Assembly (NCBI GenBank): GCA_963840435.1
Contig: CAWIYY010000015.1
Location: 42,105-106,104, forward strand
Reading direction: 5' to 3'
DNA length: 64,000 nucleotides
From: an uncultured Acidimicrobiaceae bacterium
GTDB lineage: Bacteria; Actinomycetota; Acidimicrobiia; Acidimicrobiales; RAAP-2
Part shown: in pieces, positions 6,781 through 43,463 of the stretch
Layout: the number at the start of each line of letters is the position of its first letter
Numbering within the stretch: the stretch's first letter is position 1
The notes under the pieces: generated by a model
Told to the model about the DNA's origin: nothing
Database searches by the model: none
The model's input: only the letters and a program-made list of their open reading frames with translations
Position numbers and translations under genes: made by a program

Positions 6781-8220
6781 ATGGAGGAACCACACGTGAA
6801 GGTCTTTGGGAGAGCAACAGCGCGCAATCTCGGCGCGCTCGGCATGCTCGGCGCGCTGGTGGGAGGCTTGAGCTTCGCCGCCCCGAGTGTGTCTGGTGCG
6901 TCGAGTGGAGGGACCCTGCTCGTCTCGACAACGGGTTCCAACGTCGGCTCGTGCCGGGTGAACGCCTGCCGGACAATCGGCTACGCCGTGTCGCAGGCCA
7001 CCACAGGCTCGACGATCAGCGTCTCTGCAGGCACGTACGCTGAGCAACTGGTCATCACCAACCAGACTCTTTCGATCAAGGGCACCGGTGGGACGGTCAC
7101 GATTCAGCCCACGGCACTGCCGACCTCCGACACCAACAGCGACACCGGTTTGCCGGCCTATCCGATCGTCGACGTGGTGGGCGGCAGCGTGAACCTGAAG
7201 AACCTCACCATTGACGGCTCGGTCGCCTCCAGTCAGTTCACCAGCTGCAGTGACGATTTCGACGGCGTCTATTACCACAACGCCGGCGGCCTCATGTCGG
7301 GCGACACCGTGGAGAACATCTCCCTGCCCACCACACCGACCAACTTGGACGGGTGTCAGGACGGCAACGACGTCCTGGTGCGCTCCGACACCGGGAGGTT
7401 CGCGAGCGTGACGGTCCAGGGCGGCACCAAGCTGGAGTCGTACCAGAAGAACGGCATCTTCTGCATGGACGCCGGCACCACCTGCAAAGTGGATGACACG
7501 ACGATCACGGGAGTCGGGCCCGACCCCTTCCAGGCGGGCAATGGATTCTCCGCCGTCGACGCCAGCTCCATCACGGCCACTGGAAACGCCATCTCAGGCG
7601 ACTCCTACGCTGGAGCGGGAGGCCCGGGAAACCAGTCCGAAGCCATGTATTTCGGTGACATCGGCACCCTGAGCGTCACCGACAACGTCGTGTCGCAGAG
7701 CGACATCGGCATCTACCTCACCGACGATGGCAGCGGTCCTCGGCCGGGCACGTGGACGGTGAGCGGCAACACGGTCAGCGGCGCCACGGACAACATCGCC
7801 GGCGGGGAGGCGAACTACGGCGACGGGATCCAGGTGGACAGCTCGTCCAATGCGATCACCATCACCAACAACACGGTCAGCGGGAGCGCCGAGAACGGGA
7901 TCTCGCTGCTTAGTGCCGGTTTCGACCGGGTGGCGAACAACCACCTGTCTCACAACGCGGACAACGGGATCTACCTCGGGTCTCCGGGATCGACCTCTTC
8001 GGCCGCGACGACCGGCGCCACCGTCTTCGACAACACGCTGAAGAAGAACGGTAACGACGGGATCCTGACTGACACCGGATCGAGTTCCAACTCGTTGAGC
8101 GGGAACAGCGCCACCAAGAACATCAACGGCTTCGACTACCAGGACCTCGGGACTGGCAACACGTGGTCCAGCAACACCTGCACTCCGGCCCACGACTCGA
8201 GCCCGGCCGGGCTCTGCTAG
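6781..8220 (+). CDS. secreted right-handed parallel beta-helix repeat protein (pectate-lyase/NosD-like fold)
   Basis: Signal peptide (LGALGMLGALVGGLSFAAPSVSGA). TGSTISVSAGTYAEQLVI is followed by many NxxxxG/I-rich beta-helix repeats (ISGDS, VSGNTVSGA, ITNNTVSGS, LSHNADNGIYL). The start may be GTG 6796. Confidence 0.7.
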   Translation: MEEPHVKVFGRATARNLGALGMLGALVGGLSFAAPSVSGASSGGTLLVSTTGSNVGSCRVNACRTIGYAVSQATTGSTISVSAGTYAEQLVITNQTLSIKGTGGTVTIQPTALPTSDTNSDTGLPAYPIVDVVGGSVNLKNLTIDGSVASSQFTSCSDDFDGVYYHNAGGLMSGDTVENISLPTTPTNLDGCQDGNDVLVRSDTGRFASVTVQGGTKLESYQKNGIFCMDAGTTCKVDDTTITGVGPDPFQAGNGFSAVDASSITATGNAISGDSYAGAGGPGNQSEAMYFGDIGTLSVTDNVVSQSDIGIYLTDDGSGPRPGTWTVSGNTVSGATDNIAGGEANYGDGIQVDSSSNAITITNNTVSGSAENGISLLSAGFDRVANNHLSHNADNGIYLGSPGSTSSAATTGATVFDNTLKKNGNDGILTDTGSSSNSLSGNSATKNINGFDYQDLGTGNTWSSNTCTPAHDSSPAGLC

Positions 8221-8267
8221 CCGAGACAGAGAGAACGGGAACGTCGTAGGGAGCAAGGCCTCCTGCG

Positions 8268-8310
8268 AAGGCCCCGGTGGCGCGAAGAAGAACCGCGCTG
8301 CCGGGGCCTT
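8268..8310 (+). terminator. stem-loop after the beta-helix gene
   Basis: AAGGCCCCGGtGGCGCG-aagaagaac-CGCGCtGCCGGGGCCTT, followed by gcccgTTTcg. Confidence 0.5.
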
Positions 8311-8381
8311 GCCCGTTTCGACGGGAGTGAGGTCCCGAAGCTGGACCAGGGCAGGTTGGTGGAGGAATAGGGTTCTTCTCC

Positions 8382-9320
8382 GTGTCGGACGCCGCCCTTT
8401 CTCTCGATGCACTGGCTGTCACTGCGGTGGTCCTCACCCACCGCAGGCCGCGACTTGCAGGTGACGTCGTCCGGAGCCTGCTCCATGACGAGGGTTTCTC
8501 CCCCGGACGGATCGTGGTTGTGGTCAATGGCAGTGGTGGGCTCGACGACCCTGCCCTCGAAGCCTCGGTGCAGATGGTCTGGCTGGAGGAGAACTTCGGG
8601 CCGGCGGCTGGGTTCGGAGCGGGCATCCTGCACGCCTTTGCCGATCCGGGCACCCGCTGGGCCTACCTCTGTGAGGATGACATCGGCCTTTTTGGACTGC
8701 CCACCCCTCGGGTCGCCGAGCTCGTGCGCCGCGTGGAAAGCGACCCCGCCCTCGTTGATACGGGCGCGGTAGTGGCCTATGGGCGGCGGTTCGTGGGCCG
8801 AGGTCATTCGGAGAACGTTGTTCCGGGCGCCGGTGATCCGGAGCTCGTCCCGGTGGATGTGGCGGCCTGGGGGGCCACCCTGCTCAGCCGTCGGGTGCTC
8901 GAGCGAGGCGTGCTCCCCGACACTGAGTGGTATTTCGGCTACGAGGATTTCGATTTCTTCTGCCGGGTCAGGGCCTGCGGTCTCCCGGTCCTTGTGGACT
9001 CGCACTCGGCACGCGTGGCCGCCGAAGTACAGACAAACGAGGGGCGCAATGAGGCGATGGCCGGCGCCCGCCCGAAGGACTCGGAGGAGCCGTGGCGGGC
9101 GTACTACGTTGCCCGGAACTTCTTCCATCTCTCCCGTGCGCATGGCTCGCGCTCATGGACGGCGTGGCACTTCGCGTACTCGGCGCGTCGCATCCAGTTG
9201 GCGTCGAGCGCCGAGGAACGGATGGCAACGGTCCTCGGGCTGCTTGACGGGATGAGAGGCCGGCTGGGAGCCCATCCGCGCTTTCAGCGCAAGACGGGCG
9301 AGTTCGAACAACCCGGGTGA
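8382..9320 (+). CDS. glycosyltransferase family 2 (GT-A)
   Basis: VTAVVLTHRRP...VVVVNGSGG...ENFGPAAGFGAG...LCEDDIG is the typical rhamnosyl/galactofuranosyl-type GT2 layout with an ED(D) metal motif. Confidence 0.75.
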   Translation: MSDAALSLDALAVTAVVLTHRRPRLAGDVVRSLLHDEGFSPGRIVVVVNGSGGLDDPALEASVQMVWLEENFGPAAGFGAGILHAFADPGTRWAYLCEDDIGLFGLPTPRVAELVRRVESDPALVDTGAVVAYGRRFVGRGHSENVVPGAGDPELVPVDVAAWGATLLSRRVLERGVLPDTEWYFGYEDFDFFCRVRACGLPVLVDSHSARVAAEVQTNEGRNEAMAGARPKDSEEPWRAYYVARNFFHLSRAHGSRSWTAWHFAYSARRIQLASSAEERMATVLGLLDGMRGRLGAHPRFQRKTGEFEQPG

Positions 9321-9368
9321 TTTCTCCGGCGTGACGCCGCGTCGGTCGCCCGATCTTTCGTCAGGAGA

Positions 9369-11387
9369 TCATTGTCGGCGGGAGGACTTCGACAGCTGAT
9401 CCTTCTGCATATTCGTCATCACCAGTCCCAACACCGGTGGTCGGCGTTGTGTCAGCAGCCTTTGTGTCCGAAGGCCGTCCTGCACCGTGGTGTGCCAGCT
9501 CTCGCAGACCACGACGACGAGGTCGACCACGGGCAAGAGTGCGGCTCCATCCTGTGTCGAGAGGAGCGGCGCTTCGATCAAGAGCACGTCGACCACGTCG
9601 CGAGCCGCCTCAATGAGACTTCCCGCCTTGAGCGCGAGGCGGGCCGGATTGGAGAACACCGACCCCAAGGCGAGGCTCGACACACCCGGAATCTGGGAGG
9701 GTCGGGCGTTGGCCACCAATTCTGCGGCATCGGTATCGGGCATTTCGCCTTCCCAGCCCCGGAACCCCTTGCCGTCACCCTCGAACTCGGTTCGCATACC
9801 GCCGGTCGTGGCTACCAGCACCCGGTCACCGGCCTCGGCGAACACCGTTGCCAGATTGACGACGGCGAGCGACCGCGACGGTTCGTCATTGGGAGAGGTG
9901 ATCAGGATGGCGAAGCGGTGGCGACGCGGGGTGACGAGGTCAGTGCCCGCCCTGGGTACCGGGTACCGCCCCTCGGTGACTGGACCCTCGTCGGGGCCGC
10001 CTGCCATGGCCGCTCCGGTGGGCGCAGAGACCAAGGGCCGCGCCGGGGCCAGTTCGGCCGGCTCGAGTCCAACTCCGCCCCGTTTGACCCACGTGACAGA
10101 GGGGGCCGTGAGAATGGCGACGTACAGCTTGCGGTATGCCTCGGATATCGGCGAATACGGGTCCACCACGATGTCGACGACCGGGATCACCGAGGTCGAA
10201 TTCGGCCCAGCGGGGATCTCGGAGACGACGGGGAGACGGAAGACCTCCTCGGCCCGCTTGGTGGTCCGGATACGCCGATCGAGGCCGTCGAGCAGCCAGG
10301 TGGCCAGGATCCCGAGAATGAGGCCGACGAGGAAACCGATCCCGAGCCGCACCGAGTGCCGGGCCAGCAGTGACGGCTTCGAGTTGAGCATTGACGCGCT
10401 CTTGGCGGGAGTGATGACTCTGAAGCCGGACTGCGGGGTGCCCTGGGCTAGGAGGAGCTGCTGTCTGGCCTGCGCGTGAGCGAGCTCGTTGATGAGGACA
10501 TTTTTCTCAGCCTTGACCGTCGCCGAGACCCCCGGAGTGGTTGTCGTCGTCAGACCGGGAACCAGTGTCGTGGGCGCTCCTGGGACAGTCGTGGCAGCGA
10601 CCAGCCCTAACCCGGGAAGTGTCGACGGTGTCCCGGCGACGGGCCGGAACGAGGTGAGCTGCGCAGATCGGCCGGGAACCGCCAGGGAGGACTTGGCGGT
10701 CGTACTGGTTGTCGTCGGGGCGGTGGTAACAGGAGGCCGGATCACGGTTCGCCGAACCTTGTGCCGCCTGACGGTCGGTGTGGTGGTCGCCGGCTTGATC
10801 GTGGTCGGCGTCACCGGCTTCTTCGGAAGCGCGTTGATCGCGTTCTCCAGGTTGGTGATGTACAGCTGGTTGATGAACTCCGCGTTCTTGGTCGAATTCG
10901 AGAACTGGAGCTGGGAGTAGCTGTCGAGAGCGGTCACGAAGGCGTTTGTCATGCTGACCGCTTTGGCTTTGGTCGGCTGGAGGACCCCGACCTGGAGGAT
11001 GGCCGAACCGCCCTTCTTCGCACCGCCGCCCGCTCCAGCCTGCTTGGCCGCGGCTTTGGCCTCCTTGCTGATCTGGGCTTTGCCGATCACCACCTCGCTC
11101 TGGAGCTTCTTCGTGACCGGTACTCCGTCGGCCGTCGCTGCCGCGTCGACCACCGCCGGCTCGTGAGCGTAGAACTCGAGCTGCTTCACTCCGAGCTTGG
11201 CTCCCAGGTTGTTCCCCTTGGCGGGTGGGTTGAGCCCCACCTCCGCACTGGCCAGCCAGGTGGGCGTGGGGAACGTGGAGGACGTGTGCACCGGGATGAG
11301 GACCGCAACTACCATGCACACGAGCACGAAGGGGATGAGCACCGGCCAGCGACGGATCGGCGCTCGCAAATAGGAAATCGGCTCCAA
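9369..11387 (-). CDS. polysaccharide co-polymerase (Wzz-like) fused to a degenerate BY-kinase-like P-loop domain
   Basis: 672 aa. N-terminal TM, a periplasmic-type region with a Pro/Thr-rich tract, and a second TM (LGIGFLVGLILGILATWLL). Then DPYSPISEAYRKL and FAILITSPNDEPSRSLAVVNLATVFAEAGDRVLV, which is colinear with CpsD/Wzc kinase domains. Confidence 0.75.
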   Translation of the reverse strand: MEPISYLRAPIRRWPVLIPFVLVCMVVAVLIPVHTSSTFPTPTWLASAEVGLNPPAKGNNLGAKLGVKQLEFYAHEPAVVDAAATADGVPVTKKLQSEVVIGKAQISKEAKAAAKQAGAGGGAKKGGSAILQVGVLQPTKAKAVSMTNAFVTALDSYSQLQFSNSTKNAEFINQLYITNLENAINALPKKPVTPTTIKPATTTPTVRRHKVRRTVIRPPVTTAPTTTSTTAKSSLAVPGRSAQLTSFRPVAGTPSTLPGLGLVAATTVPGAPTTLVPGLTTTTTPGVSATVKAEKNVLINELAHAQARQQLLLAQGTPQSGFRVITPAKSASMLNSKPSLLARHSVRLGIGFLVGLILGILATWLLDGLDRRIRTTKRAEEVFRLPVVSEIPAGPNSTSVIPVVDIVVDPYSPISEAYRKLYVAILTAPSVTWVKRGGVGLEPAELAPARPLVSAPTGAAMAGGPDEGPVTEGRYPVPRAGTDLVTPRRHRFAILITSPNDEPSRSLAVVNLATVFAEAGDRVLVATTGGMRTEFEGDGKGFRGWEGEMPDTDAAELVANARPSQIPGVSSLALGSVFSNPARLALKAGSLIEAARDVVDVLLIEAPLLSTQDGAALLPVVDLVVVVCESWHTTVQDGLRTQRLLTQRRPPVLGLVMTNMQKDQLSKSSRRQ

Positions 11388-11786
11388 CGCTCAGCCTCCG
11401 GAAACGGGGTGTGACCGGAGCCACCCCTTGAGTTTGTCGCCCCTCATGGATGCGAAGAGCACGGCTGCGGATACTAATCGCCGGAATTCCTAGAGAGAAT
11501 TCGCCCCTGCGCAGCTGAATCGGGTCGAGTAAGCTCTCGAGCAGCTGCGGTTGGCAACTGCGGTGCATGGCGATGCAATCAGGTGGCGCTCAGCTCGGCT
11601 GTGGCGAAAGAGGGCAAATACGCGGCGTTCTCGTTTCGATAGCGCGCGGTCGTGACGACTTTGTGATTCGGGTGAAATCCATGCGTTTTGTGTGGGTGCA
11701 GGAGGTGCTTGTTGTGCAAACCGGCCGTGAACACGGCGAAACCGCAAAGTTAATCTTTGATGTCCTGCACATTTCTCCTGCATAGG

Positions 11787-11824
11787 TACTTCAATGACAC
11801 TTGACCGTGCCTGCTACTTCAATG
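11787..11824 (+). repeat. direct repeat TACTTCAATG x2 (28-nt period) in a low-GC divergent intergenic region
   Basis: TACTTCAATG occurs at 11787-11796 and 11815-11824, upstream of the dehydratase gene. Confidence 0.6.
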
Positions 11825-11948
11825 CAATGTGAAAGCGCGTGCGGACCAAATCAGAGGGGGTGGAGGAGGTGCGGGGTGACGTACAAGCACCGGCTGGTTT
11901 CCGACTCGAAGACGAACCGCGCGTCCAGGCCCAGCCCCACCAGGGGTT

Positions 11949-13919
11949 TTGATGGCTGACAGGAGCGAGAGGCCCGCGTCGGGCACCGTGCGCATCAGTC
12001 TTCTGGCCACAAAGGTCCGGTCGAGGATGGTGTTCTTCTTCATGGACGCAGCGGTCGTGGTGGCCGCTTTCGGTATCGCCGAGGTTGTGTCACTGCGAGA
12101 TCGAGCTCCTGCGGACTACTGGCCCAAGTTCCTGTTATTCCTCTTAATTACATTGTTCGTGCAATTGGGTGCCAATCGAGTGTTCGGTTTGTACGGAAGG
12201 ATCTGGCGTCACGCCGGCATCGAGGAGGCCCGCAACATCGCCATGGCCTGCCTGGTAACCCTGGCCATCCTGCTTGCCCTCTATCCCATCGGATTCGAGA
12301 TGCACCTGACCCGGGTGCCCCTGCAGGTGATCCCACTTGGTTGTGCTCTCACCCTCCTCGGGATCGGGCTCCTTCGGTTCCACTCACGTCTGCTCGGCTG
12401 GCAGCGAGCCAACCGGGGCATGGGGATCCGAGTGGCCGTGGTCGGCAGCAAGGATGCGGGAGCCGCCGTCATCCGAGGCATGCTGCGCAACCCTGGCGCC
12501 GGCATGTTCCCCGTCGCGGTCATCGACGACGACGAGCGCACGCACGGGCTGTCGCTCATGGGGGTGCCGGTCGTCGGATCTATCGACGATCTGCCCGCGG
12601 CGATCGAGAAGTTGCAGATCCAGCAGGTGCTCCTGGCCATTCCCAATCCCTCGACGGCGACCGTCGAGCGCTGCGTCCGGGCCAGTGAGGACGCGGAGAT
12701 CGTGATGAAGATCGTGCCGGACTTGTCCGACATCGTCAGCTCCCTCTCCGGCTCCATTTCCGAGCCCTCGGTCTCCATCCGATCGGCTCGCGAACCGCGG
12801 ATCGAGGATCTCCTTGGTCGCCGTGAGGTGGTCACCGATTTGGCGACGGTGAGGAACGCGCTTGACGGTCGGCGGGTTCTGGTCACTGGGGCAGGAGGCT
12901 CAATCGGATCCGAGATCTGCCGACAGGTGTCAGGCTTCGGGCCTGACGTGCTGGTGATGCTCGACCACGACGAGACCCACCTGCACGAAGCGTCGGCGAC
13001 CACCTCGGCAAGTTGCAAGGTGGAGCAGGTCCTGATCGACGTGTCCAACCGCGAAGCGGTGATGGACGCGTTCATCCGCTGGCAGCCCGATGTCGTCTTC
13101 CACGCGGCCGCCCACAAGCACGTCCCCATCCTCGAGACGCACGTCGTCGAGGCGGTCACCACCAACGTGTTGGGAACACGAAATGTGCTCGATGCCGCCA
13201 CTGAAGTTGGGACGGAGCGATTCGTCTTCGTGTCGACGGACAAGGCTGTCCGCCCGTCGAGCGTGATGGGTGCCACAAAACGGGTGGGAGAGCGTCTGCT
13301 GCTCGACCGTGCTCCGGATGGCGCCGCCTTCTGTGCGGTCCGCTTCGGCAATGTCCTCGGCAGTCGGGGCAGCGTCATCCCCACCTTCCAGCGCCAGATC
13401 GCTGCCGGTGGTCCCGTGACAGTGACCGACCCTCACATGACCCGGTACTTCATGAGTGTGGAGGAAGCCGTGCAGCTCGTCCTCCAGTCATCCGTGCTGG
13501 CCGAGGGGGGCGATATCTACATGCTCGAGATGGGTGAACCTGTCTCCATCCTCGATCTGGCGCATCGGATGATCCGACTTTCCGGGCTCCAGCCCGGGCT
13601 CGACATCCGCATCCGGATCACCGGACCTCGAATCGGAGAGAAGCTTCACGAGCAGCTGCACAGCTCGAGCGAGGATCTCTCACCGACGTTGCATCCCTCC
13701 ATCCTGCGCCTTCTCTCGCCAGAGATCGACACGTCGGAGGGACTCAACGAGGGAGTGTCGGAACTGGGACTTGCTGCGGCAGATCGGAACGAGGTTCGAG
13801 CCCGGCGGATTCTCTTCGACATGGTGTCCGAGCACACCGCCGACGAGCGCCTCGAACTGAACGACGTCAGGGGGCGGGAGCCGATCGCGTTCGCGGTCGA
13901 TAATGAAATCTCGGCGTGA
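11949..13919 (+). CDS. membrane-bound UDP-N-acetylhexosamine 4,6-dehydratase (CapD/PglF/WbpM family)
   Basis: 656 aa. Four to five N-terminal TM helices, then VAVVGSKDAGA and VLVTGAGGSIGSEICRQV Rossmann motifs, and STDKAVRPSSVMGATKR. Confidence 0.85.
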   Translation: MMADRSERPASGTVRISLLATKVRSRMVFFFMDAAVVVAAFGIAEVVSLRDRAPADYWPKFLLFLLITLFVQLGANRVFGLYGRIWRHAGIEEARNIAMACLVTLAILLALYPIGFEMHLTRVPLQVIPLGCALTLLGIGLLRFHSRLLGWQRANRGMGIRVAVVGSKDAGAAVIRGMLRNPGAGMFPVAVIDDDERTHGLSLMGVPVVGSIDDLPAAIEKLQIQQVLLAIPNPSTATVERCVRASEDAEIVMKIVPDLSDIVSSLSGSISEPSVSIRSAREPRIEDLLGRREVVTDLATVRNALDGRRVLVTGAGGSIGSEICRQVSGFGPDVLVMLDHDETHLHEASATTSASCKVEQVLIDVSNREAVMDAFIRWQPDVVFHAAAHKHVPILETHVVEAVTTNVLGTRNVLDAATEVGTERFVFVSTDKAVRPSSVMGATKRVGERLLLDRAPDGAAFCAVRFGNVLGSRGSVIPTFQRQIAAGGPVTVTDPHMTRYFMSVEEAVQLVLQSSVLAEGGDIYMLEMGEPVSILDLAHRMIRLSGLQPGLDIRIRITGPRIGEKLHEQLHSSSEDLSPTLHPSILRLLSPEIDTSEGLNEGVSELGLAAADRNEVRARRILFDMVSEHTADERLELNDVRGREPIAFAVDNEISA

Positions 13920-14911: not shown

Positions 14912-14925
14912 AGGACACAGGGCTG

Positions 14926-16254: not shown

Positions 16255-17220
16255 GTGGACGTACTCGTCACGGGCGGCGCGGGCTTCATCGGCTCGCACG
16301 TCTGCCGATCCCTCCGTGGAAGCGGCCTGGCTGGGCGCCTCCTCGTGCTCGACGACTTCTCGACCGGGCTCGAATCCAATTTCCGCGGGATCGAGGGTGT
16401 CGAGATCCACCGGGGAAGCGTGCTCGACGAGGCGCTGGTGGCCAGCCTGGTGGGCGAGGTAGGGGCGATTGTGCACCTTGCTGCGGTGCCCGCGGTGGCG
16501 CGGTCCCTGCAGAATCCACGAGGCAGTCACGATGCCAACGCCACGGGAACTGTCGTGGTCCTCGAAGCCGCTCGGCATCATTCGCGCTACGTGATCGTCG
16601 CCTCATCCTCGTCTGTGTACGGGCGGAAGGTGTCCCTTCCAACGTCAGAAGACCATCCGACCAGGCCGGCCAGCCCCTATGCCGCGAGCAAGCTCGCCGC
16701 CGAGTCCTACACGATGTCCTATGCCCGCTCGTTCGGGACAAAGGTCCTCGCCCTGAGGTTCTTCAATGTCTTCGGGCCCTTCCAGCGGGCTGATCACGCC
16801 TACGCCGCCGTGATTCCCGCCTTTGTCGCAGCGGCGCTCGAGGGCAGACCGCTCTCGGTCCACGGCGACGGGACCCAGACCCGAGACTTCACCTATGTTG
16901 GTGATGTGATGGCGGTGATCACTGATGCCCTGTGCCGGGAGGTGACCACCGATTCACCCGTCAATCTGGCCTTCAGTACCAACACATCCCTACTCACGCT
17001 CATCGACGAGCTCGAGGCGCTCCTCGACCGTCCACTCGAGCGCGAGCACGGCCCGTCACGAGGCGGCGACGTCCACGACTCCCAGGCCGATTGCTCCAGG
17101 CTCCAGGCGCTCTTCCCGTCGGTGCACGCGACGCCGCTCCGTGACGGACTGCGCTCGACCGTTGACTGGTTCCGCCAGATCGATGGTGACGCCGCAAACG
17201 CCACGGCGGCGCGGACGTGA
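16255..17220 (+). CDS. NAD-dependent nucleotide-sugar epimerase/dehydratase (SDR)
   Basis: VLVTGGAGFIGSH; SSSSVYG...YAASKLAAE (YxxxK). Confidence 0.85.
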   Translation: MDVLVTGGAGFIGSHVCRSLRGSGLAGRLLVLDDFSTGLESNFRGIEGVEIHRGSVLDEALVASLVGEVGAIVHLAAVPAVARSLQNPRGSHDANATGTVVVLEAARHHSRYVIVASSSSVYGRKVSLPTSEDHPTRPASPYAASKLAAESYTMSYARSFGTKVLALRFFNVFGPFQRADHAYAAVIPAFVAAALEGRPLSVHGDGTQTRDFTYVGDVMAVITDALCREVTTDSPVNLAFSTNTSLLTLIDELEALLDRPLEREHGPSRGGDVHDSQADCSRLQALFPSVHATPLRDGLRSTVDWFRQIDGDAANATAART

Positions 17221-17248
17221 CTCCATCCGTCATCCTGATTCGCCGGCA

Positions 17249-18133
17249 ATGATCTACGTCGCCACCGTCCACTGGAACGACCCGAAGTGGATCGCGCCGC
17301 AGCGAAGAGCACTCGCTGCGCAGATGCAGGAGCCATTTCGCGTGTTCGCCAACCTGCAAGGCATCGAACCCGCCTACGACAGGTACTTCGATTCGGTTAC
17401 CCGGGGCGAGGGGAACCACCCGCAAAAGTTGAACGATCTGGCGGACGCCATCACGAATGAAGCCCAACCCGAGGATCTCATTCTGTTCCTCGACGGAGAC
17501 GCCTTTCCGGTTCGAGGGCTCGATTCCTGGCTGCGCGAGCTCTTGCGCGAGCATCGCCTGGCTGCAGTTCGGCGCGACGAGAACGCTGGCGACATTCAGC
17601 CGCATCCGTGTTTCTGCGTGACCTCAGTCGGGTTCTGGAACGAGATCGGCGGGGACTGGCGCCATGGTTCATGGATCACCGCCGAAGGCGCGACCGCGTC
17701 GGATGTTGGCGGCACCCTGCTGTCAACCTTGAAGGCGCGGTCGATCCCCTGGCGTCCCATCCTGCGCTCCAACGCGGTCAATCTCCATCCGGTCTTCTAC
17801 GGCCTCTACGAGGGTCACATCTATCACCACGGATCGGGTTTCCGACCGGCCATTTCTCGAGCCGACGAGACAAACGTGCCGGTGGCCCAAAACAAGGACT
17901 ACCTGTTCTGGCGCACACGGGCGCACGCCAGATCGCTCCGCGAAATCCGGCCGCGGCATGCCCGGCACTTGTTCCTCATGGCCCGTGACGGCGTGCGGGC
18001 TCGAAAGCTCAATGCCTACATACGTAAAGAGGGGAGGCGGTCGAACGAGATCTACGACCAGCTGTGTTCCGACCCCGATTTCTTCCGACAGTTCGAGCAG
18101 GCCGACACCAGCTCGCTGGTGGCCGGAGGCTGA
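17249..18133 (+). CDS. hypothetical protein, possible GT-A-like glycosyltransferase
   Basis: ATG 17249 (MIYVATVHWNDP). LILFLDGDAFPV is DxD-like. High GC3. No firm family assignment. Confidence 0.45.
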   Translation: MIYVATVHWNDPKWIAPQRRALAAQMQEPFRVFANLQGIEPAYDRYFDSVTRGEGNHPQKLNDLADAITNEAQPEDLILFLDGDAFPVRGLDSWLRELLREHRLAAVRRDENAGDIQPHPCFCVTSVGFWNEIGGDWRHGSWITAEGATASDVGGTLLSTLKARSIPWRPILRSNAVNLHPVFYGLYEGHIYHHGSGFRPAISRADETNVPVAQNKDYLFWRTRAHARSLREIRPRHARHLFLMARDGVRARKLNAYIRKEGRRSNEIYDQLCSDPDFFRQFEQADTSSLVAGG

Positions 18134-18150
18134 ACCCACCCGACCGGGGG

Positions 18151-19089
18151 TCAGTCCTCGAGGCCGTGCAAGGAGAAACCGAGCGCACGCACCTTGGCCA
18201 GTCGTTCGTCGCCGAACTCGTTGCGCATCTGCTCGAGAGTGAACTCCAGCGGGAGCGGGGGGTTCGGGAAGGCCATCAACTCCTCCATCGTGTCCTCCGG
18301 CGCCTCGATCCCGAGAAACTCGACCAATCGGCGGACTTCCTCGCGAGGAGAGCGGCACAGATCGCCATGGTTCACCAGAAGAAACGTCCCCTCAGGCATG
18401 GCTCGCCCCCGTTCGATCGCCAGACTGTTCGAGGCAATCCAGTAGTCCAGCGACCGTACCGGGTTGGCCGACGAACCTCCCTCGATCCCGAACTGAGATC
18501 CCCAACGTGCGACCTGGACCTGGTTGGGGCTGTGCGCCATATAGATCCCGTGGCGGATCACGTGGACGTAGCGCAGCCGGTCCCCGAAGTAGCTGCGAAA
18601 ATGAGGGAGAAAGACGTGGCTGTTTGGCTCCTTCCACCCCCAGAGCGGTGAGTCCTCTCGGACCTGTTCGCGCGAGTGAGCCAGCGTTTCTACTCTGTCT
18701 TCCAGCCACGCGTCGGAGCGGTCGTCCGACAGGTCACCCCGCCTTGCAAAGGCCGAGCAGCGGTGGACCACGGCGGATATGGTCCGCCGATCTTCTCTCG
18801 TAGGCACCAGCAGACCGGTCATTGCCTTCTCGAGTATCGCCAGCGAGTGCCGGATCGGCGTGGCGTCGGGGCCCTCGGGATCAGGATCCCATCTGGGGAG
18901 CTTGCAGAGCAGGGTGAACCATTTGTTGTCCCCGGCTTTGTTCAGATCCGAACCGGTGTACACCTGCAGGCGTCGCATGATCTCGACAACCACTCGCGTG
19001 CCGCTGCCTCCAACGCCGCCAATGACGACGGGGCCTTGCTGTGGCTCGAACCGCGGGGCTGGCTGCGGCCGGCTGAAAACTGGGGTCAC
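18151..19089 (-). CDS. sulfotransferase family protein
   Basis: VVIGGVGGSGTRVVVEIMRRL is a P-loop-like PAPS site. WGWKEPNSHVFLPHF is typical of the Sulfotransfer_3-like group. Confidence 0.7.
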   Translation of the reverse strand: MTPVFSRPQPAPRFEPQQGPVVIGGVGGSGTRVVVEIMRRLQVYTGSDLNKAGDNKWFTLLCKLPRWDPDPEGPDATPIRHSLAILEKAMTGLLVPTREDRRTISAVVHRCSAFARRGDLSDDRSDAWLEDRVETLAHSREQVREDSPLWGWKEPNSHVFLPHFRSYFGDRLRYVHVIRHGIYMAHSPNQVQVARWGSQFGIEGGSSANPVRSLDYWIASNSLAIERGRAMPEGTFLLVNHGDLCRSPREEVRRLVEFLGIEAPEDTMEELMAFPNPPLPLEFTLEQMRNEFGDERLAKVRALGFSLHGLED

Positions 19090-19099
19090 GGAACGCCGA

Positions 19100-21154
19100 C
19101 TAGTCCTGAGGTCTGGCGGAGCCGGCCCCCTGGTGAGCCGAGTCCGCCGGACTCGTCGGATACCAGCGCCGCGTCGATGCGTGGTCAGCCCAGGGAATCG
19201 GATGCCGGCTCGAATCGGCCCGGCGATTCGGGAGGGTAATCACCTCGTCCCAACGCTGCGTGTAGACGGCGTCGAGAGATTGGCTCCGGCGGGCGAAGCT
19301 GTGCCAGCCTGCCGACTGGTGCATTCCATCGCGCTCTGAGCGTTCGACCAGTTCGAGCTTGGTCCGGGTGAACGCCTCCTCCCGATACTGGAAGTGGTGG
19401 ATATTGATCCCTCTCGAGGGTTCGATGAGACGCTCCGACGCGTACGCCGTGTGTGCTCCGTCATTGCTCAAGAGGAACTGGCCGTGCCGATCAAAGCGCT
19501 GCAGAGGATGCTTCCAATGCCCCAGTGAGCAGGGCGGGTTGTTGAGGGGTTCGAAGGTGTAATAGAGCGGTTGAAAGTCGAGCGGATGGAATCGAGGGAC
19601 GTATTCCGGTTTGCGGTCGGGCAGGTGATTCAGGAACGTGGCCCCGACAAGGCGGAACCTGCGGTCCAAGCCTGCCAGGTAGTCCCTGACAGTCGTGCCA
19701 CTCGGACCCTCGGGAAACTCATCGCTGTCGAGCAACATCCACCACACGTGGTCGGCCCCGGAACGCAGTGACTCCCGGGCGACAACCGCATTCACCAGAG
19801 GCTGCACCAACCGTCCGTCGAAGGCCTCCGTTTCGTAGACCTCGGCGATGGTGGCGCCCGCTGCTTCGGCGTTGGCGACGGTGGCATCGCTGCTCGCATT
19901 GTCGACCACGTACACGGCGTCGGCGCCTTGTGTCTGAGCATTGCGGACCGTCGCCTCGATGATGTCCTCGTCCATCCATGACTTGATCACTGCAAAAACG
20001 CGGAAGCCGTCGAGTGGAACCAGAGCCGCCGGGTTGTCCTCGTGCCCCAGGTGGCCTGGCCTGCCTGTCGTGCGCTTTCGGGCAGAGATCGCTCGGCGTG
20101 CAGTTGTCGAGAGAATCTGCAAACGCTCCAGTGCAGGCGGAGACCCGTTTGACGCCGCCGGTTCCGCAGTGTCGCCCTCGGAATCGGCCGACAGCGTCGG
20201 TCCACTCGAAGTCAAGCGCCAGACCGTCTTGGTGGCAGCGAACAGACGGGATCGCTTGATCCACTTCAGTTCGTTCTCGGCCGCGACCCGGGCGAAGACC
20301 ACCATTTCACCGTCCGCCGAGAGCTGAATGAAGTCGTCCACCCAGGACGGTTCGTCGGGAACCGGGGGAGGAGTCCACCGGTTGTGACCACCACGCCGAC
20401 GCACCAGCACTTCCGCAAACGCCCTCTGCTCGGCTACGAGCAGCGGTTCGGCCCCCTCGTCGGAGCGGTGGTGTCGCAGCTCCGGCTCGAAGGCATCCAC
20501 CGCCTGATCAATGCGGTGGTGCGCCGAATGCGCCAGGTCCTGATCCGCCAGGAAGTCACACAACTCGCCGATGGAAGTGCCGGGATCTTGCAGGATGGAC
20601 TGGTAGTCGGCCACGAAGACGGGGAGGCCTTCCACGGCCCTGATCGATTGCTGGACGTAGCGGCGCCACAGCGCCAGTCCGAACGAGATGGGGAAATCGT
20701 TGCGGTGCTCCAGCGACCGCGCGACCTCGAGCGGATCCCGAAGGACCAGGACCGCCACTGGGGGACGATCGAACACCTGGCGCCAGAGCGGCAGGACCAG
20801 ACAGAGCCGCGGGTCCTTCAGCACCATGTGAGCCTCGGTGAATTCCCGCAACGAGAAATCACGCGCGCCGCTCTTGAGCTCTCCCAGCTCGGCGCTCTTG
20901 GAGTCCTCCCATCCGAGAGGTGGGCTCGGTGGCGATGACCAGGTGCCCCCGAGGTATCTGAGGATCCGGTCGTTATAGGTCACGAACCGCCGGCTTTCCC
21001 AGTATCCCCGCTCGTTGTAGGGGCCTGGCGTGATGAGGTCGGTCTCGTCGGGGAGGGCAAATCCGAGCCGAGCGACGGCATTGGCGACGGCCGACGTTCC
21101 GCTTCGGTGCATCCCGATGATGACGACGTGCTGTTGCTCCGACGGCTTCATCAC
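19100..21154 (-). CDS. two-domain protein: N-terminal sulfotransferase plus C-terminal family-2-like glycosyltransferase
   Basis: 684 aa. VVIIGMHRSGTSAVANAVARLG..YNERGYWES is a Stf0-like sulfotransferase. FAVIKSWMDEDIIEATVRN..VYVVDNASSDAT..LLDSDEF is a GT2-like domain with a DxD motif. Confidence 0.7.
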   Translation of the reverse strand: MMKPSEQQHVVIIGMHRSGTSAVANAVARLGFALPDETDLITPGPYNERGYWESRRFVTYNDRILRYLGGTWSSPPSPPLGWEDSKSAELGELKSGARDFSLREFTEAHMVLKDPRLCLVLPLWRQVFDRPPVAVLVLRDPLEVARSLEHRNDFPISFGLALWRRYVQQSIRAVEGLPVFVADYQSILQDPGTSIGELCDFLADQDLAHSAHHRIDQAVDAFEPELRHHRSDEGAEPLLVAEQRAFAEVLVRRRGGHNRWTPPPVPDEPSWVDDFIQLSADGEMVVFARVAAENELKWIKRSRLFAATKTVWRLTSSGPTLSADSEGDTAEPAASNGSPPALERLQILSTTARRAISARKRTTGRPGHLGHEDNPAALVPLDGFRVFAVIKSWMDEDIIEATVRNAQTQGADAVYVVDNASSDATVANAEAAGATIAEVYETEAFDGRLVQPLVNAVVARESLRSGADHVWWMLLDSDEFPEGPSGTTVRDYLAGLDRRFRLVGATFLNHLPDRKPEYVPRFHPLDFQPLYYTFEPLNNPPCSLGHWKHPLQRFDRHGQFLLSNDGAHTAYASERLIEPSRGINIHHFQYREEAFTRTKLELVERSERDGMHQSAGWHSFARRSQSLDAVYTQRWDEVITLPNRRADSSRHPIPWADHASTRRWYPTSPADSAHQGAGSARPQD

Positions 21155-22272
21155 GAGGTGTGGAGCAGCGTCTCGATGATGCGATCCTGATCCGTGGGTG
21201 ACAGAGCTGATCCACTCGGCAGGCAGAGGCCGTCGGCGAAGATGCCCTCGGCGACCGCGCCGCCCAGGACCGTTGCTCCCTTGTAGAGCGGCTGCAGGTG
21301 GAGCGGTTTCCAGACCGGCCGGGATTCGACGTCGATCTGCTCGAGGGCCAATCGGATCTGTTCGCGATCGGCGCCGAAGCGTTCTGGGTCAATGCGGATG
21401 CAGGTCATCCAGTAGTTGGGCACGACCTCGGGGCGAAAGGGCATCATCGCAATGCCGTCGACCTCGTCGAACGCGGCGCGGTAGCGCTCACGTATGGCTT
21501 TTCGTTGTTCGATGCGCCGGTCGAGTCCTCTCAGCTGGCCACGACCCAGTGCCGCGAGCAGGTTGCTCAAGCGGTAGTTGTAGCCCAGGTCGAGGTGCTC
21601 GTAGTGGGCGACAGGTTGTCGGGCCTGGGTGGAGAGGTAGCGGGCCCGTTGGACCAACTGTGGCGAGTTCGACGCCAGCATCCCGCCGCCACTGGTCGTG
21701 ATGATCTTGTTGCCGTTGAACGAGAAGGTGGCGCAGGCGCCGAACCCTCCCGCCGGACGGCCACGGTAGGAGGCGCCCAGCCCTTCAGCGGCGTCTTCGA
21801 CAAGTGGGATCTCGAGGTCCTCACAGGCAGCGGTCAGCACGTCGTAGTCCGGGCAGCCGCCGAGAAGGTCGACAGAGATCACTGCCGCCGGCCGCCGGCC
21901 CAGGCGGGCCCGTTCATAGAGATCGGCCGCCAAGAGGTTGGCGTCGACGTTCCAGTCGGCCGGGTCCGAGTCGACAAAGACGGGTTCTGCCCCGACATAG
22001 CAGGCCGCATTGGCCGTCGCCACGAACGTCAGGGTGGGCACGATCACCTGGTCGCCAGGTTGCACGCCGACCAGGAGGAGGGCCAAATGGAGTGCAGCGG
22101 TGCCACTCGAGAGGGCCGCCGCATCGGTCACACCGACCCGATCGGCCAACTCCCGCTCGAACGCGTCGACATGGGGTCCCAGCGGTGCGATCCAATTCGA
22201 GTCGAAAGCGTCGAGGAGGAGCTCGCGCTCCTCAGAACCGGTGTCGGGAGGTGAGAGAAAGATCCGGGCCAT
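21151..22272 (-). CDS. DegT/DnrJ/EryC1/StrS-family PLP aminotransferase (PglE/WbpE-like sugar aminotransferase)
   Basis: Start set to ATG 22272 (MARIFLSPPDTGSEERELL..SNWIAPLGPHV..FE). The track ORF extends upstream into an Arg/Gly-rich non-homologous stretch that overlaps the next gene. Confidence 0.9.
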   Translation of the reverse strand: MARIFLSPPDTGSEERELLLDAFDSNWIAPLGPHVDAFERELADRVGVTDAAALSSGTAALHLALLLVGVQPGDQVIVPTLTFVATANAACYVGAEPVFVDSDPADWNVDANLLAADLYERARLGRRPAAVISVDLLGGCPDYDVLTAACEDLEIPLVEDAAEGLGASYRGRPAGGFGACATFSFNGNKIITTSGGGMLASNSPQLVQRARYLSTQARQPVAHYEHLDLGYNYRLSNLLAALGRGQLRGLDRRIEQRKAIRERYRAAFDEVDGIAMMPFRPEVVPNYWMTCIRIDPERFGADREQIRLALEQIDVESRPVWKPLHLQPLYKGATVLGGAVAEGIFADGLCLPSGSALSPTDQDRIIETLLHTS

Positions 22273-22274
22273 GT

Positions 22275-23258
22275 TCAAGACGGTCCCGCGCCGGTGGGCT
22301 GCTGAGGTGAGGACATGAACCCAGCCTGGAATCCCACGGCGATGAGTGCCAAAACGCTGACTCCTGTGATCGCCACGGCCGGGACGGTTTTCAAGTCGCT
22401 GGCCACGATGGCCAACCCTGTGAGTATGACGCCCGTCAGGGCATAGGCCCCAACCGCCGCCTTTGTGCTCCAGCCTCGCCGCAGCAGCTGGTCGTATGGG
22501 TGGTCGCGGTCGCCGGCGAGCAGCGAGGTTCCGGCGCGCCACCGGCGAACCACCGCGAAGACCAGTTCGGCGGCCGGAAGAAGGACCAGAGGAAGAGCAC
22601 CGATTCCTACCGGCAACGACTCGCCTGGCGCCCAGCACAGCGCCAGCAGAGCGGCAATCGCCGTTCCGATCAGATAGGAGCCGCCGTCACCGAGGTAGAT
22701 CCTGGCCGGAGGCCAGTTGAAGACCAGGAACGCGGCCATGGCCCCCGCCAGAGCGACCGCGAGATACCGACCGTGGCTGCCGAGGACCACTGCGAATCCC
22801 ACTGCACTGGCCAGGGTGACCGAGCCACAGAGGCCGTCGAGCCCGTCCATGAGATTGAAACCGTTCACGAGCACGACTGTGGCCACGACAATCAGGATGA
22901 AGCTCACGATCCCCGTGAAGCGGGTGGCCAGCATGAGGGCGAGGACCACGGCGGTGAGGAGTTCGGCGGCCAGGCGTGCGGCGGGAGGAAGTGGCCGCAC
23001 ATCGTCGCTCGTGCCAATGGCGAGCGCCATCCCGAGGGGGATGAGCAGCAGGGGCCGGTAGGCGACGGTGCCGACAAGGAGCCCGAGGGCGACTGCGACT
23101 CCACCGAGATAGGGCGTTGCCGAGGCTTGGGGCTTGAGCGGCCCCGGCTGGTCGATCAATTGCACGCGCCTGGCCACTCGCCACGCCAGGGGGGTGGCCA
23201 CCAACGTGACCGCGCAGGCGCCAATCCCCACCGCGACGGTGTCTGTCAAGGAGGGCAT
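22275..23258 (-). CDS. polyprenyl-phosphate N-acetylhexosamine-1-phosphate transferase (MraY/WecA/WbpL superfamily)
   Basis: 327 aa and polytopic. IDQPGPLKPQASATPYLGG and NGFNLMDGLDGL are signature motifs. Confidence 0.85.
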   Translation of the reverse strand: MPSLTDTVAVGIGACAVTLVATPLAWRVARRVQLIDQPGPLKPQASATPYLGGVAVALGLLVGTVAYRPLLLIPLGMALAIGTSDDVRPLPPAARLAAELLTAVVLALMLATRFTGIVSFILIVVATVVLVNGFNLMDGLDGLCGSVTLASAVGFAVVLGSHGRYLAVALAGAMAAFLVFNWPPARIYLGDGGSYLIGTAIAALLALCWAPGESLPVGIGALPLVLLPAAELVFAVVRRWRAGTSLLAGDRDHPYDQLLRRGWSTKAAVGAYALTGVILTGLAIVASDLKTVPAVAITGVSVLALIAVGFQAGFMSSPQQPTGAGPS

Positions 23259-23914
23259 ATGGCTGAGATGTCGGCTCGCAGGAGCAGCGATTCGGTTCCC
23301 GGGTGCAACTCGAAACGCTCCGCTTCGACGAAGCCCGCCTCGAGGTAGACCCTGATCGCCGTCTCGTTCGTCGCCGCCACCACCACACGGGCCGTGCTCG
23401 AACCCGCCTCAGCCGCCGCGGCATGGAAGGAACGGACGAGCTGCGCACCGGCGCCTCGCCGTCGAGCCGTGGCCGCCACGGCGAGCGAGAGCAACTCCGT
23501 CTCGGATCTCTCCACGTGCTCACCCATTCCCTTCGGCTGCTTCGGGTCGTCCTTTGCCCCATAGCGCAAGGTTTCGACGACCCGGGGGATCGAGCGCACG
23601 AGGCGCGGGGCCGAGGTCATCCCGGCGACCAAGCCGTCGCGGAGGAGGAAATCGCCATAGAGGCGGCGCACCGAAGTGGCACCGGCGACAAACCCGATCA
23701 CGATCCCGGGTCCTGGATCGCAGGCCACCAGGAGAAAGCCGTGCGGGGACTTGGCGATCCGGGCGTAGAGCCGGCGGAGGAAGCGGGGCCCCAGCGAGGC
23801 AAGGAATCCCTCAGTGATCGCCCTGACATGGAGGTCCGCCACGCTGCCTGCGTCCTGCGACGTGGCGGCCCTCACGACGACCTCGCTCGGGGGTTCCCCG
23901 TTGCCACCTGACAT
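23246..23914 (-). CDS. GNAT-family N-acetyltransferase
   Basis: Start set to ATG 23914. LAVAATARRRGAGAQLV is the Q/RxxGxG/A acetyl-CoA motif. First gene of the minus-strand operon 23914 to 18151. Confidence 0.7.
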   Translation of the reverse strand: MSGGNGEPPSEVVVRAATSQDAGSVADLHVRAITEGFLASLGPRFLRRLYARIAKSPHGFLLVACDPGPGIVIGFVAGATSVRRLYGDFLLRDGLVAGMTSAPRLVRSIPRVVETLRYGAKDDPKQPKGMGEHVERSETELLSLAVAATARRRGAGAQLVRSFHAAAAEAGSSTARVVVAATNETAIRVYLEAGFVEAERFELHPGTESLLLRADISAICPP

Positions 23915-24117
23915 TGGACCCTCGACCCCGATGAGATTGCCGGACCGGATCACGTTAGCCTCCGAGTGCCGGCGTCCCGGCGGCGGCAATCCCGCTGTTC
24001 ACCTGGCCCTTTCCTTCCTTTAGCTGTTCGCTCGATCCCCCGGCTCCGGCGCCAGAGACCCGGTTCGGCCGGACCGGAGGGGTGTTGCGCCCGCCCGCAG
24101 CGCCATTCCAAACGCAA

Positions 24118-26217: not shown

Positions 26218-26281
26218 TCACGGCCGTTAGCGTGATCGGGTGCTCGAGCCAGAGTCCACCCAGATCACCTAACGGCCGTGA
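26218..26281 (+). promoter_or_regulatory. long imperfect hairpin that includes the pstC start codon
   Basis: TCACGGCCGTTAGcGTGATCGGGTG (26218-26242) pairs with CACCCaGATCACCTAACGGCCGTGA (26257-26281). The GTG start at 26278 lies in the 3' arm. Confidence 0.5.
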
Positions 26282-42508: not shown

Positions 42509-42527
42509 CGCTCGGGTCCCTGGGCGG

Positions 42528-42960
42528 TCAGGAACGGCGTCTCTCGAGGGCCGAGAGCATGGCGACCTCGATCAGATCGACCTCGTCGTGGAGCGACAGC
42601 CGCTCCTCGGCCGCATGTCGACAGCGCTGACCGAGCTCGGGGTCGTCACTGTGCCAATCGAGCACCTCGAGCAGATGCCGGACCAGATCGTCGGGGTCAT
42701 CGGGTGCGGCCAGCCGGCGCCGCATCCAGTGGGTGAGGATCTCGGGGGAGCCCGCCGACCGCAGTCGCCACCACCGGGACGCGCCGACCCGGCCGAGGCG
42801 GCGCGTCCCGTCGACGAGCTGCGCTCCCTGGGGCTGGAACTCCCGGTCGAAGCGATGGCCACGCCGGGCCAGTCTCTGGGCGTTGGTCAGGTGGGTCCGC
42901 TCCAGGCCACCCGCCGAGTCGAGGTGGTTTGCCGTGGTCGGGATCCGCACCGGGCCACAA
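42528..42960 (-). pseudogene. probable frameshifted, 5'-truncated remnant of a GT4 glycosyltransferase
   Basis: One minus frame reads VPVVATAVGGLP (ORF 42697..42960). Another continues PEILTHW...LAAPDDPDDLVRHLLEVLDWHSDDPELGQRCRHAAEERLS (ORF 42528..42950). Together they form a GT4 C-terminus split at about nt 42748, and no N-terminal half is present. Confidence 0.35.
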
Positions 42961-43450: not shown

Positions 43451-43463
43451 GGCCTGGCCGGGA

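Follow-up and report, generated by a model that had tools for sequence, protein, structure and literature searches.

Here, we analyzed a 64,000-nucleotide stretch of DNA from an uncultured Acidimicrobiaceae bacterium (contig CAWIYY010000015.1; hereafter the window) and a putative glycan gene cluster in it, locus I, at positions 6781-23989. The window has about 66% G+C, and real genes were told from many spurious open reading frames (ORFs) by codon-position G+C, with the value at third positions (GC3) above 0.74. The proteins of locus I were assigned by profile searches with Pfam and NCBIfam, which gave 13 genes (Table 1). The locus is built of two convergent, tightly packed operons (11949-18133 on the plus strand and 18151-23989 on the minus strand) and a divergent gene for a polysaccharide co-polymerase (PCP)-like protein. 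Two genes of the minus-strand operon encode sulfotransferase-type P-loop proteins, a stand-alone one (ST1) and one fused to a glycosyltransferase domain of GT-A fold. Judging from the gene assignments and from related loci, we consider it fairly probable that uncultured soil Acidimicrobiaceae widely share a system for assembling an acidic sulfated glycan, and that locus I is the version of it specific to this lineage. The nearest matches to the window in genome collections were metagenome-assembled genomes (MAGs) of uncultured Acidimicrobiaceae from the MFD series.

Table 1. Genes of locus I and of a second cluster in the same window (aa, amino acids; TM, transmembrane).
Product	Positions	Strand	Size and evidence
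Secreted right-handed beta-helix/NosD-like protein	6781-8220	+	479 aa; Pfam Beta_helix 2.3e-15, NosD 1.6e-11
Weak GT2-like glycosyltransferase	8382-9320	+	312 aa; Pfam Glycos_transf_2 4e-4 (below gathering score), NCBIfam GlfT1 1.5e-6
PCP/Wzz-like co-polymerase with degenerate C-terminal tyrosine-kinase-like domain	9369-11387	-	672 aa
Membrane-anchored PglF/WbpM-type UDP-N-acetylhexosamine (UDP-HexNAc) 4,6-dehydratase	11949-13919	+	656 aa; Polysacc_synt_2 2.8e-105, CoA_binding_3 4.8e-13
NTP_transf_5 family nucleotidyltransferase	13916-14911	+	331 aa; PF14907 4.9e-17
Nucleoside diphosphate (NDP)-sugar 6-dehydrogenase, UDP-HexNAc type	14926-16254	+	442 aa; three UDPG_MGDP_dh Pfam domains
Extended short-chain dehydrogenase/reductase (SDR), NDP-sugar epimerase/dehydratase	16255-17220	+	321 aa; Epimerase 2.5e-55
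Orphan GT-A fold glycosyltransferase (predicted fold)	17249-18133	+	294 aa; no Pfam/NCBIfam family
Stand-alone sulfotransferase ST1 of the 3'-phosphoadenosine-5'-phosphosulfate (PAPS) type	18151-19089	-	312 aa; Sulfotransfer_3
Sulfotransferase-GT-A fusion	19100-21151	-	683 aa; Glyco_tranf_2_4 and sub-threshold sulfotransferase domain
DegT/LegC/PglE-type sugar 4-aminotransferase	21151-22272	-	373 aa; PF01041 1.8e-94
WecA/WbpL-type polyprenyl-phosphate HexNAc-1-phosphate transferase (PNPT)	22275-23258	-	327 aa; PF00953 1.6e-27
GNAT-domain protein, presumed aminosugar N-acyltransferase	23246-23989	-	up to 247 aa; GNAT E ~1e-8
Methyltransferase	41390-42508		Pfam/NCBIfam
AsnB-type (AsnB/XrtA-type) amidotransferase	43464-45773	-	Pfam/NCBIfam
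Sulfotransferase ST3	45826-46686		Pfam/NCBIfam
11-TM protein	46683-48173		496 aa; no Pfam/NCBIfam family
Beta-helix protein	48385-49968		Pfam/NCBIfam
Two GT4 enzymes	50021-52440	-	Pfam/NCBIfam

The genes for the GNAT protein, the PNPT, the DegT aminotransferase, the fusion and ST1 follow one another closely on the minus strand, where stop and start codons overlap; the stop codon of the aminotransferase gene and the start codon of the fusion gene overlap as TGATG. Both sulfotransferase genes are predicted to be translationally coupled in one operon with the priming and aminosugar genes. In the 560-bp intergenic region between the divergent genes (11388-11948), scanning for promoters gave no signal above chance.

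We found that ST1 matched Sulfotransfer_3 with 41.4 bits (gathering score, 27) and the olefin-synthase sulfotransferase domain (PDB 4gox) with 1.5e-5. The motifs GGxGGSGT and WGWKxP and the pair R178...S186 were invariant or nearly so in 20 homologues, and PF13469 was present in 119 of the 120 homologues listed (758 were found). The protein has a profile score above threshold, the P-loop of the 5'-phosphosulfate-binding (5'-PSB) motif and the Arg...Ser pair of the 3'-phosphate-binding (3'-PB) motif. By these sequence marks it is unambiguously a member of the PAPS-dependent sulfotransferase superfamily, with a predicted activity, as the initial annotation of this DNA had proposed.

The architecture of the fusion was taken from an alignment of 25 full-length homologues (54-89% identity). 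It consists of one sulfotransferase domain (about residues 9-230, positions ~20460-21151), a linker in which a conserved helix is followed by low-complexity sequence, and one GT-A domain (about residues 380-660). In the sulfotransferase part, GMHRSGTS, KDPR and RDPxxVAxS (R138-D-P...S146) are invariant in the 25 sequences and read as the 5'-PSB and 3'-PB signatures of PAPS sulfotransferases. VDNxSxD and DSDEF are likewise invariant in the glycosyltransferase part, which matched Pfam Glyco_tranf_2_4 over residues 395-480 (33.4 bits vs 27.5); profile, fold and DxD motif all identify a GT-A enzyme. The AlphaFold (AF2) model was confident in both domains, with predicted local distance difference test (pLDDT) values of 83-95 over residues 10-220. 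Foldseek matched the model to the sulfotransferases 4gox (4.8e-5), TPST2 (3ap1; 2e-4, root-mean-square deviation (rmsd) 4.0 over 225 columns) and Stf9 (2z6v; 4.8e-3), and to the GT-A enzymes SunS/ThuS, GpgS, K4CP and SpsA. Homologues at 60-65% identity carry PF13469. The motifs, these homologues and the fold matches of the model support the assignment of the N-terminal domain to the sulfotransferase superfamily. The proposed sulfotransferase-GT2 fusion stands in its GT-A domain and in a single sulfotransferase domain recognized by motifs, homologues and fold, but in its own sequence the latter lies below the Pfam threshold. Neither the fusion nor ST1 has a TM segment or signal sequence.

The initial annotation had counted three sulfotransferase domains in the locus. 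The alignment, the AF2 model and Foldseek give two, because the fusion holds one sulfotransferase and one GT-A domain and ST1 adds the other. Its reading would have failed had the P-loop proteins fallen outside the sulfotransferase families; both lie within the superfamily, ST1 by profile and the fusion by motifs, homologues and fold. The whole window has five sulfotransferase domains, the three outside locus I being at 316-1158, in the C-terminal half of 1212-2657 and in ST3. The first two are Sulfotransfer_1-type domains just upstream of the locus. In the 1212-2657 protein, residues 240-437 form the sulfotransferase domain, whereas the N-terminal half is by profile a true PurN (TIGR00639, 160 bits, above cutoff); purH and folD follow the gene. 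This is either a PurN-sulfotransferase fusion or two genes read as a single ORF.

Other metagenomic proteins likewise join the sulfotransferase subfamily of the fusion to Branch/GT14 (PF02485), GT2 (PF00535), GT4 (PF00534) and methyltransferase domains. Thus, sulfotransferase-glycosyltransferase fusions recur. A full-text literature search found no paper on such fusions, and a search on sulfotransferases in Acidimicrobiia gave nothing relevant.

Among the fold matches of the fusion, human TPST2 has the best rmsd, and SunS and ThuS are peptide S-glycosyltransferases. It might be supposed that the sulfotransferases act on peptide tyrosines, as TPST and RaxST do, with the GT-A domain glycosylating the same peptide in the manner of SunS/ThuS, or that they act on small molecules. 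We regard such non-glycan acceptors as very unlikely. At 11-16% identity the matches are remote, the fold of sulfotransferases is a generic one, and no precursor-peptide gene or machinery for ribosomally synthesized and post-translationally modified peptides was seen. The translational coupling to sugar-nucleotide and lipid-carrier enzymes and the GT14, GT2 and GT4 fusions of the subfamily also argue for a glycan acceptor.

The sugar-nucleotide and priming enzymes were assigned to families with confidence, and to single functions with less. The 4,6-dehydratase has about four N-terminal TM segments, and the PseB and FnlA models scored below their cutoffs. For the DegT aminotransferase, the top NCBIfam match was the LegC family (350 bits, below the cutoff of 420), and PseC (241 bits) was likewise below its cutoff. 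The 6-dehydrogenase matched TIGR03026 with 388 bits against a cutoff of 190; its nearest models were UDP-ManNAc dehydrogenase and TviB, and its match to Ugd was far weaker. The LegB, GalE, RmlB and TviC models scored the SDR protein alike, all below cutoff. The PNPT has about ten TM segments and matched the WecA model TIGR02380 (1.2e-22, below cutoff). In the GNAT protein, GNAT families match residues 144-227, and the WecD match is faint (4e-4). The dehydratase, the aminotransferase, the priming transferase and the pair of UDP-HexNAc dehydrogenase and epimerase were all found as first annotated; so was the GNAT domain, in an ORF that reaches 23246-23989.

The initial annotation had joined these genes into a bacillosamine-type priming pathway. 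The Pgl pathway of Campylobacter and Neisseria to N,N'-diacetylbacillosamine (diNAcBac) comprises the membrane-anchored 4,6-dehydratase PglF, the DegT-family aminotransferase PglE, the N-acetyltransferase PglD (left-handed beta-helix) and the phosphoglycosyltransferase PglC. Locus I is alike in having a PglF-type membrane dehydratase and a PglE-type (DegT) aminotransferase, which do not reach equivalog cutoffs, together with an N-acetyltransferase. However, that enzyme is a GNAT and not a PglD type, and the initiator is a polytopic PNPT (PF00953, WecA type) and not a PglC type; in addition, locus I has sulfotransferases and no oligosaccharyltransferase. Thus, the label holds for the dehydratase and aminotransferase and fails for the other two enzymes, and nothing in our analysis points to a diamino sugar as the first sugar. 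WbpM/WbpL of Pseudomonas aeruginosa, TviB/TviC of the Vi antigen and the wbg clusters of Plesiomonas shigelloides O17 and Shigella sonnei offer a second comparison. These systems, which occur in Gram-negative lipopolysaccharide or capsule contexts, have a WbpM-type dehydratase, a WbpL/WecA-type PNPT, a UDP-HexNAc 6-dehydrogenase and a 4-epimerase, and their polymers contain a 6-deoxy-aminosugar and a HexNAc-uronic acid. To our knowledge, they are not sulfated, and all equivalog models stay below cutoff for the locus I proteins. By family membership, the aminosugar branch of locus I resembles Pgl, WbpM and LegC chemistry.

The orphan GT-A protein belongs to no Pfam or NCBIfam family. It has 1064 homologues, including one 100% identical 294-aa NCBI/ENA protein, and its family consists of more than 1000 hypothetical proteins. 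Its AF2 model (pLDDT 82) matched glycogenin (1e-5), the Leptospira glycosyltransferase 6p61, TarS and BcsA in Foldseek, and D82-G83-D84 is invariant. On this model, it is a predicted GT-A fold glycosyltransferase, and so the locus would have three GT-A enzymes beside the priming enzyme. The GT2-like gene agrees in strand and length with a called gene in the closest relative, and its homologues (55-61% identical where they adjoin AsnB and ST3 homologues) occur in 18 of the 79 related loci described below. Of the GT2 enzymes first proposed, the fusion domain is above threshold, whereas this protein has only a weak GT2 match.

The PCP-like protein has the two-TM topology of Wzz (TM residues 15-33 and ~340-368) and sub-threshold NCBIfam matches to TIGR01007 (6e-9) and to EpsF, XrtA chain-length and CspC types. 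At its Walker A position, it reads SPNDEPSRS instead of GxGK[ST], at the Walker B position IEAP, and it has no C-terminal tyrosine cluster. PCP-2/bacterial tyrosine kinases combine the Wzz topology with intact Walker A, A' and B motifs and a tyrosine cluster, and this protein does not. We read it from its sequence as a PCP-like protein with a pseudo-kinase domain; the proposed Wzz-like co-polymerase is thus upheld in its topology and PCP matches but has a degenerate kinase domain. The beta-helix protein has one N-terminal hydrophobic segment and a paralogue, the beta-helix protein of the second cluster, and its homologues adjoin the locus in three relatives (L003, L004, L008). It may process or modify the glycan, and its membership in the locus is uncertain.

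Here, we also explored the conservation of the system. Relatives were gathered solely by the sulfotransferase motif of the fusion, which gave 79 loci; gene content was counted within ±10 kb of the sulfotransferase, and all 79 were compared against the window proteins and the proteins of three of those loci. Seven MAGs or contigs (L001-L004, L006, L008 and L079) keep the order GNAT, PNPT, DegT, fusion, ST1 / GT-A, epimerase, dehydrogenase, NTP_transf_5, PglF / PCP, GT2, with 55-98% amino-acid identity. The closest is the JGI metagenome contig L079, with proteins 88-98% identical to those of the window. The trio of GNAT, PNPT and DegT genes occurs in 37-40 of the 79 loci; the GNAT gene always adjoins the PNPT and DegT genes in 37 of them, and DegT is 59-67% identical in the more distant ones. 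In L007 (10055-14044), a fusion and ST1 pair lies between mdh and a gene for a circularly permuted ATP-grasp protein, beside homologues of the GT4 pair of the window. This pair is split into fragments, which may be pseudogenes or long-read assembly frameshifts.

The segment between the DegT and fusion genes is less constant. L002 (7560-10954) holds two Branch/GT14-like genes and a stand-alone fusion-type sulfotransferase there, L079 (1137-3466) holds one Branch gene and short fragments, and a WbsX-type glycosyltransferase lies between DegT and the sulfotransferase in 30 of the 79 loci. The window has no extra genes at this place, and the relatives have up to three. Because these genes are cleanly absent from the window, the segment varies between lineages. 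A decaying or variable segment of this kind, together with a window that has no cysDNC genes, is what could be expected if this organism made an ordinary unsulfated glycan and its sulfotransferase genes were inactive relics. We judge this extremely unlikely, since homologues of 54-89% identity keep every catalytic and PAPS-binding motif without change, these motifs are intact here, and the ORFs are full length with coding-type GC3.

The relatives also link the system to sulfate activation and export. In 15 of the 79 loci, cysD-cysN-cysC lie directly upstream of the trio. Two of these (L039, 2021-5549; L064, 1936-4757) were scanned with NCBIfam, and in both each gene was above at least one curated cutoff, CysD that of NF003587, CysN that of TIGR02034 and CysC that of TIGR00455. 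A Wzt-like ATPase was found in 20 and a Wzm-like ABC-2 permease in 16 of the 79 loci, for example TagH/galactan-export-like genes in L013 (14984-17255). This linkage to PAPS synthesis and ABC-type export is the strongest indirect support for sulfation. Because relatives tie the same core to cysDNC and Wzm/Wzt, ABC-transporter-dependent export is the most likely route.

The initial annotation had instead implied a Wzx/Wzy-dependent polysaccharide, primed in the bacillosamine manner and modified by three sulfotransferase domains. In favor of this version, the locus does have the PglF-type dehydratase and the DegT protein, along with an acetyltransferase, a priming enzyme and a Wzz-like protein. 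However, the two sulfotransferase domains, the GNAT and PNPT in place of PglD and PglC types, and the lack of Wzx/Wzy in the window and in the related loci examined, where ABC-2 exporters occur in 16-20, make it improbable.

Homologues of a second cluster of the window (41390-52440; Table 1), namely of its methyltransferase, AsnB, ST3 and GT4 genes, were found in 16-23 of the 79 loci; in about 20 related MAG loci, they lie together with the trio and a fusion-type sulfotransferase. Because relatives hold homologues of both clusters in one locus, the two clusters of the window look like a split version of one system, and the second is probably part of the same glycan system as locus I. Its 11-TM protein is the only polytopic candidate in the window for Wzx or Wzy; it has no Pfam or NCBIfam family, and 3 of 28 homologues had faint PMT_2 matches. 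It has 2818 homologues in a representative library and an invariant early Asp (D89), and it may be an uncharacterized GT-C-type enzyme.

The ABC transporter at 26278-30945 was considered as a sulfate importer or glycan exporter and rejected, as its components (PstC, PstA, PstB and PstS) are truly those of a phosphate transporter of the Pst type. In 29149-34696, pstC, pstA and pstB are followed by a long PstS (598 aa), a 936-aa protein and a sortase gene. With a partial PstS-like domain and a TM segment at its C-terminus, the 936-aa protein may bind phosphate while anchored at the surface. The sortase gene and genes for surface proteins rich in Ig-like domains neighbor locus I. G+C content is 0.62-0.67 over 6-42 kb of the window and 0.69-0.70 in the flanking housekeeping regions, a dip that is consistent with the variable regions that typically encode surface glycans and surface structures.

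A further alternative concerns the size of the product. The system could make a short sulfated oligosaccharide on a lipid carrier, destined for a glycolipid, a peptidoglycan-linked linkage unit or a protein-linked glycan, and not a long polysaccharide; by analogy, diNAcBac-based Pgl glycans or sulfated haloarchaeal N-glycans would be comparable. Just three GT-A enzymes stand beside the priming enzyme, Wzy, Wzx and an ABC exporter are missing from the window, the PCP kinase domain is degenerate, a sortase and Ig-like-rich surface proteins are nearby, and homologues of the 11-TM protein are faintly PMT_2 (GT-C)-like. On the other hand, a PCP-like chain-length protein is conserved beside the locus, relatives tie the core genes to Wzm/Wzt polymer exporters, and the window showed neither an oligosaccharyltransferase nor an LCP ligase. 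We therefore hold a short product to be unlikely.

A sulfated surface glycan is the most likely predicted product. The assignments across 13 genes, the ST1 score, the motifs, model and fold of the fusion, the operons, the synteny, the cysDNC and Wzm/Wzt genes of the relatives and the G+C dip all favor it. The original suggestion of such a glycan keeps its place as a prediction, since both P-loop proteins belong to the superfamily and are coupled in an operon, the module is conserved, and cysDNC lies beside the trio in 15 related loci.

In the scheme that we propose, every substrate, the order of the steps, the polymer length and the destination are predicted from family, fold and motif assignments and from synteny. 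The product would be an acidic, N-acetylated, aminosugar-rich glycan, built on a polyprenyl-phosphate carrier at the cytoplasmic face and sulfated in the cytoplasm. From UDP-GlcNAc, the PglF-type dehydratase, DegT and GNAT proteins would make a 4-amino-4,6-dideoxy-HexNAc derivative that may or may not be acylated, and the dehydrogenase and SDR epimerase would supply a UDP-HexNAc-uronic acid. The WecA-type PNPT would begin the chain on polyprenyl phosphate, and the three soluble GT-A enzymes (the GT2-like protein, the orphan GT-A protein and the C-terminal domain of the fusion) would extend it. The N-terminal domain of the fusion and ST1 would move sulfate from PAPS to the lipid-linked glycan, with the fusion physically coupling one glycosyl transfer with one sulfation. 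Export would use machinery encoded elsewhere, most likely Wzm/Wzt, with the PCP-like pseudo-kinase as an accessory in this lineage. A PNPT primer is present in the window, and Wzm/Wzt are seen only in the 16-20 related loci with the same sulfotransferase subfamily. The second cluster would add further steps through a third sulfotransferase, an amidotransferase, a methyltransferase and GT4 enzymes.

Several observations weigh against this scheme. The isolated N-terminal half of the fusion has the sulfotransferase fold and the xRSGT and RDPxxxxxS motifs, but scored below the Pfam gathering scores (Sulfotransfer_1, 18.3 vs 22; Sulfotransfer_3, 16.6 vs 27), and so reaches no curated profile threshold. 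Searched against PDB chains as a single sequence and as a 25-sequence profile, the fusion gave no sequence match, and only the fold search was informative. When their profiles were compared with each other, the fusion and ST1 families matched weakly (E 3.7e-4, probability 36%), a result of supporting use only. The linkage to cysDNC and Wzm/Wzt is not seen within ±10 kb in the closest relatives, and the loci that have it are more distant (sulfotransferase domain 33-41% and DegT 59-67% identical). Among the scanned ORFs of the window, there are no PAPS-synthesis genes (cysDNC) and no Pfam or NCBIfam match to Wzx or Wzy; the initial annotation had already noted the lack of Wzx and PAPS synthesis. 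A Wzm/Wzt exporter, WbsX, a ligase of the LCP or O-antigen ligase type and an oligosaccharyltransferase were likewise not detected in the window, which leaves the exporter and the ligase missing. Moreover, the organism is uncultured, and the acceptor specificity of every enzyme is deduced from its family.

Animals and algae are well-known sources of sulfated polysaccharides. A 2024 review listed only about six bacterial genera reported to make them and stated that Pfam under-detects the bacterial enzymes (PMC11625862), a statement that the sub-threshold score of the fusion fits. Taken as complete, the list of known sulfated bacterial glycans in the initial annotation was too short, as it omits Cobetia, Vibrio, Pontiella and the predicted wps-1 of Actinoplanes. 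NodH, KpsS, LpsS and Stf0 (PMC11625862) and the solved folds 4gox and 2z6v share the PAPS-type P-loop fold and the 5'-PSB and 3'-PB motifs with locus I, and NodH is also recognized through PF13469. However, no solved chain has detectable sequence similarity to the sulfotransferase domain of the fusion.

Two gene clusters appear to be the nearest functional analogues of locus I. The xss cluster (synechan) of Synechocystis sp. PCC 6803 underlies a sulfated extracellular polysaccharide, with sulfation inferred from staining and genetics (PMC8205485). Like locus I, it has two sulfotransferases of different subfamilies among glycosyltransferases and a PCP protein. It differs in having Wzx, Wzy and eight separate glycosyltransferases, in lacking a sulfotransferase-glycosyltransferase fusion and a PglF/DegT branch, and in being cyanobacterial (PMC8205485), whereas locus I is known from genes alone. 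The predicted analogue wps-1 of Actinoplanes missouriensis, also in the Actinomycetota, has two sulfotransferases and a Wzz-like protein in an extracellular polysaccharide cluster, and its sulfated product is predicted without chemical verification (PMC13390465, 2026). In contrast to locus I, wps-1 has Wzx and Wzy, sulfotransferases of other InterPro families (Gal/GlcNAc/GalNAc-type and heparan-sulfate-type) and no fusion, and it belongs to another class of Actinomycetota. Sulfated polysaccharides of Actinomycetota have so far only been predicted (PMC13390465).

Pfam thresholds miss a large bacterial sulfotransferase subfamily, as the fusion illustrates. A bolder idea, which we put forward as speculation with the odds well against it, is that the fusion and its sister GT14, GT2 and GT4 fusions are undescribed bifunctional "glycosyl-sulfo-transferases", each attaching a sugar to the growing lipid-linked chain and sulfating that chain with one enzyme, and that the cysDNC-linked, ABC-exported system gives abundant uncultured soil Acidimicrobiaceae a glycosaminoglycan-like sulfated coat that is a direct microbial source of soil ester-sulfate. 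Together with some 40 related loci, locus I points to a whole family of soil actinobacteria, all uncultured, in which a system is dedicated to sulfated glycans and frequently has a PAPS operon of its own. If this is true, such a system would provide compact bifunctional enzymes for engineering sulfated glycans, and it would bear on soil aggregation, on water and metal binding and, possibly, on the origin of organic ester-sulfate in soil.

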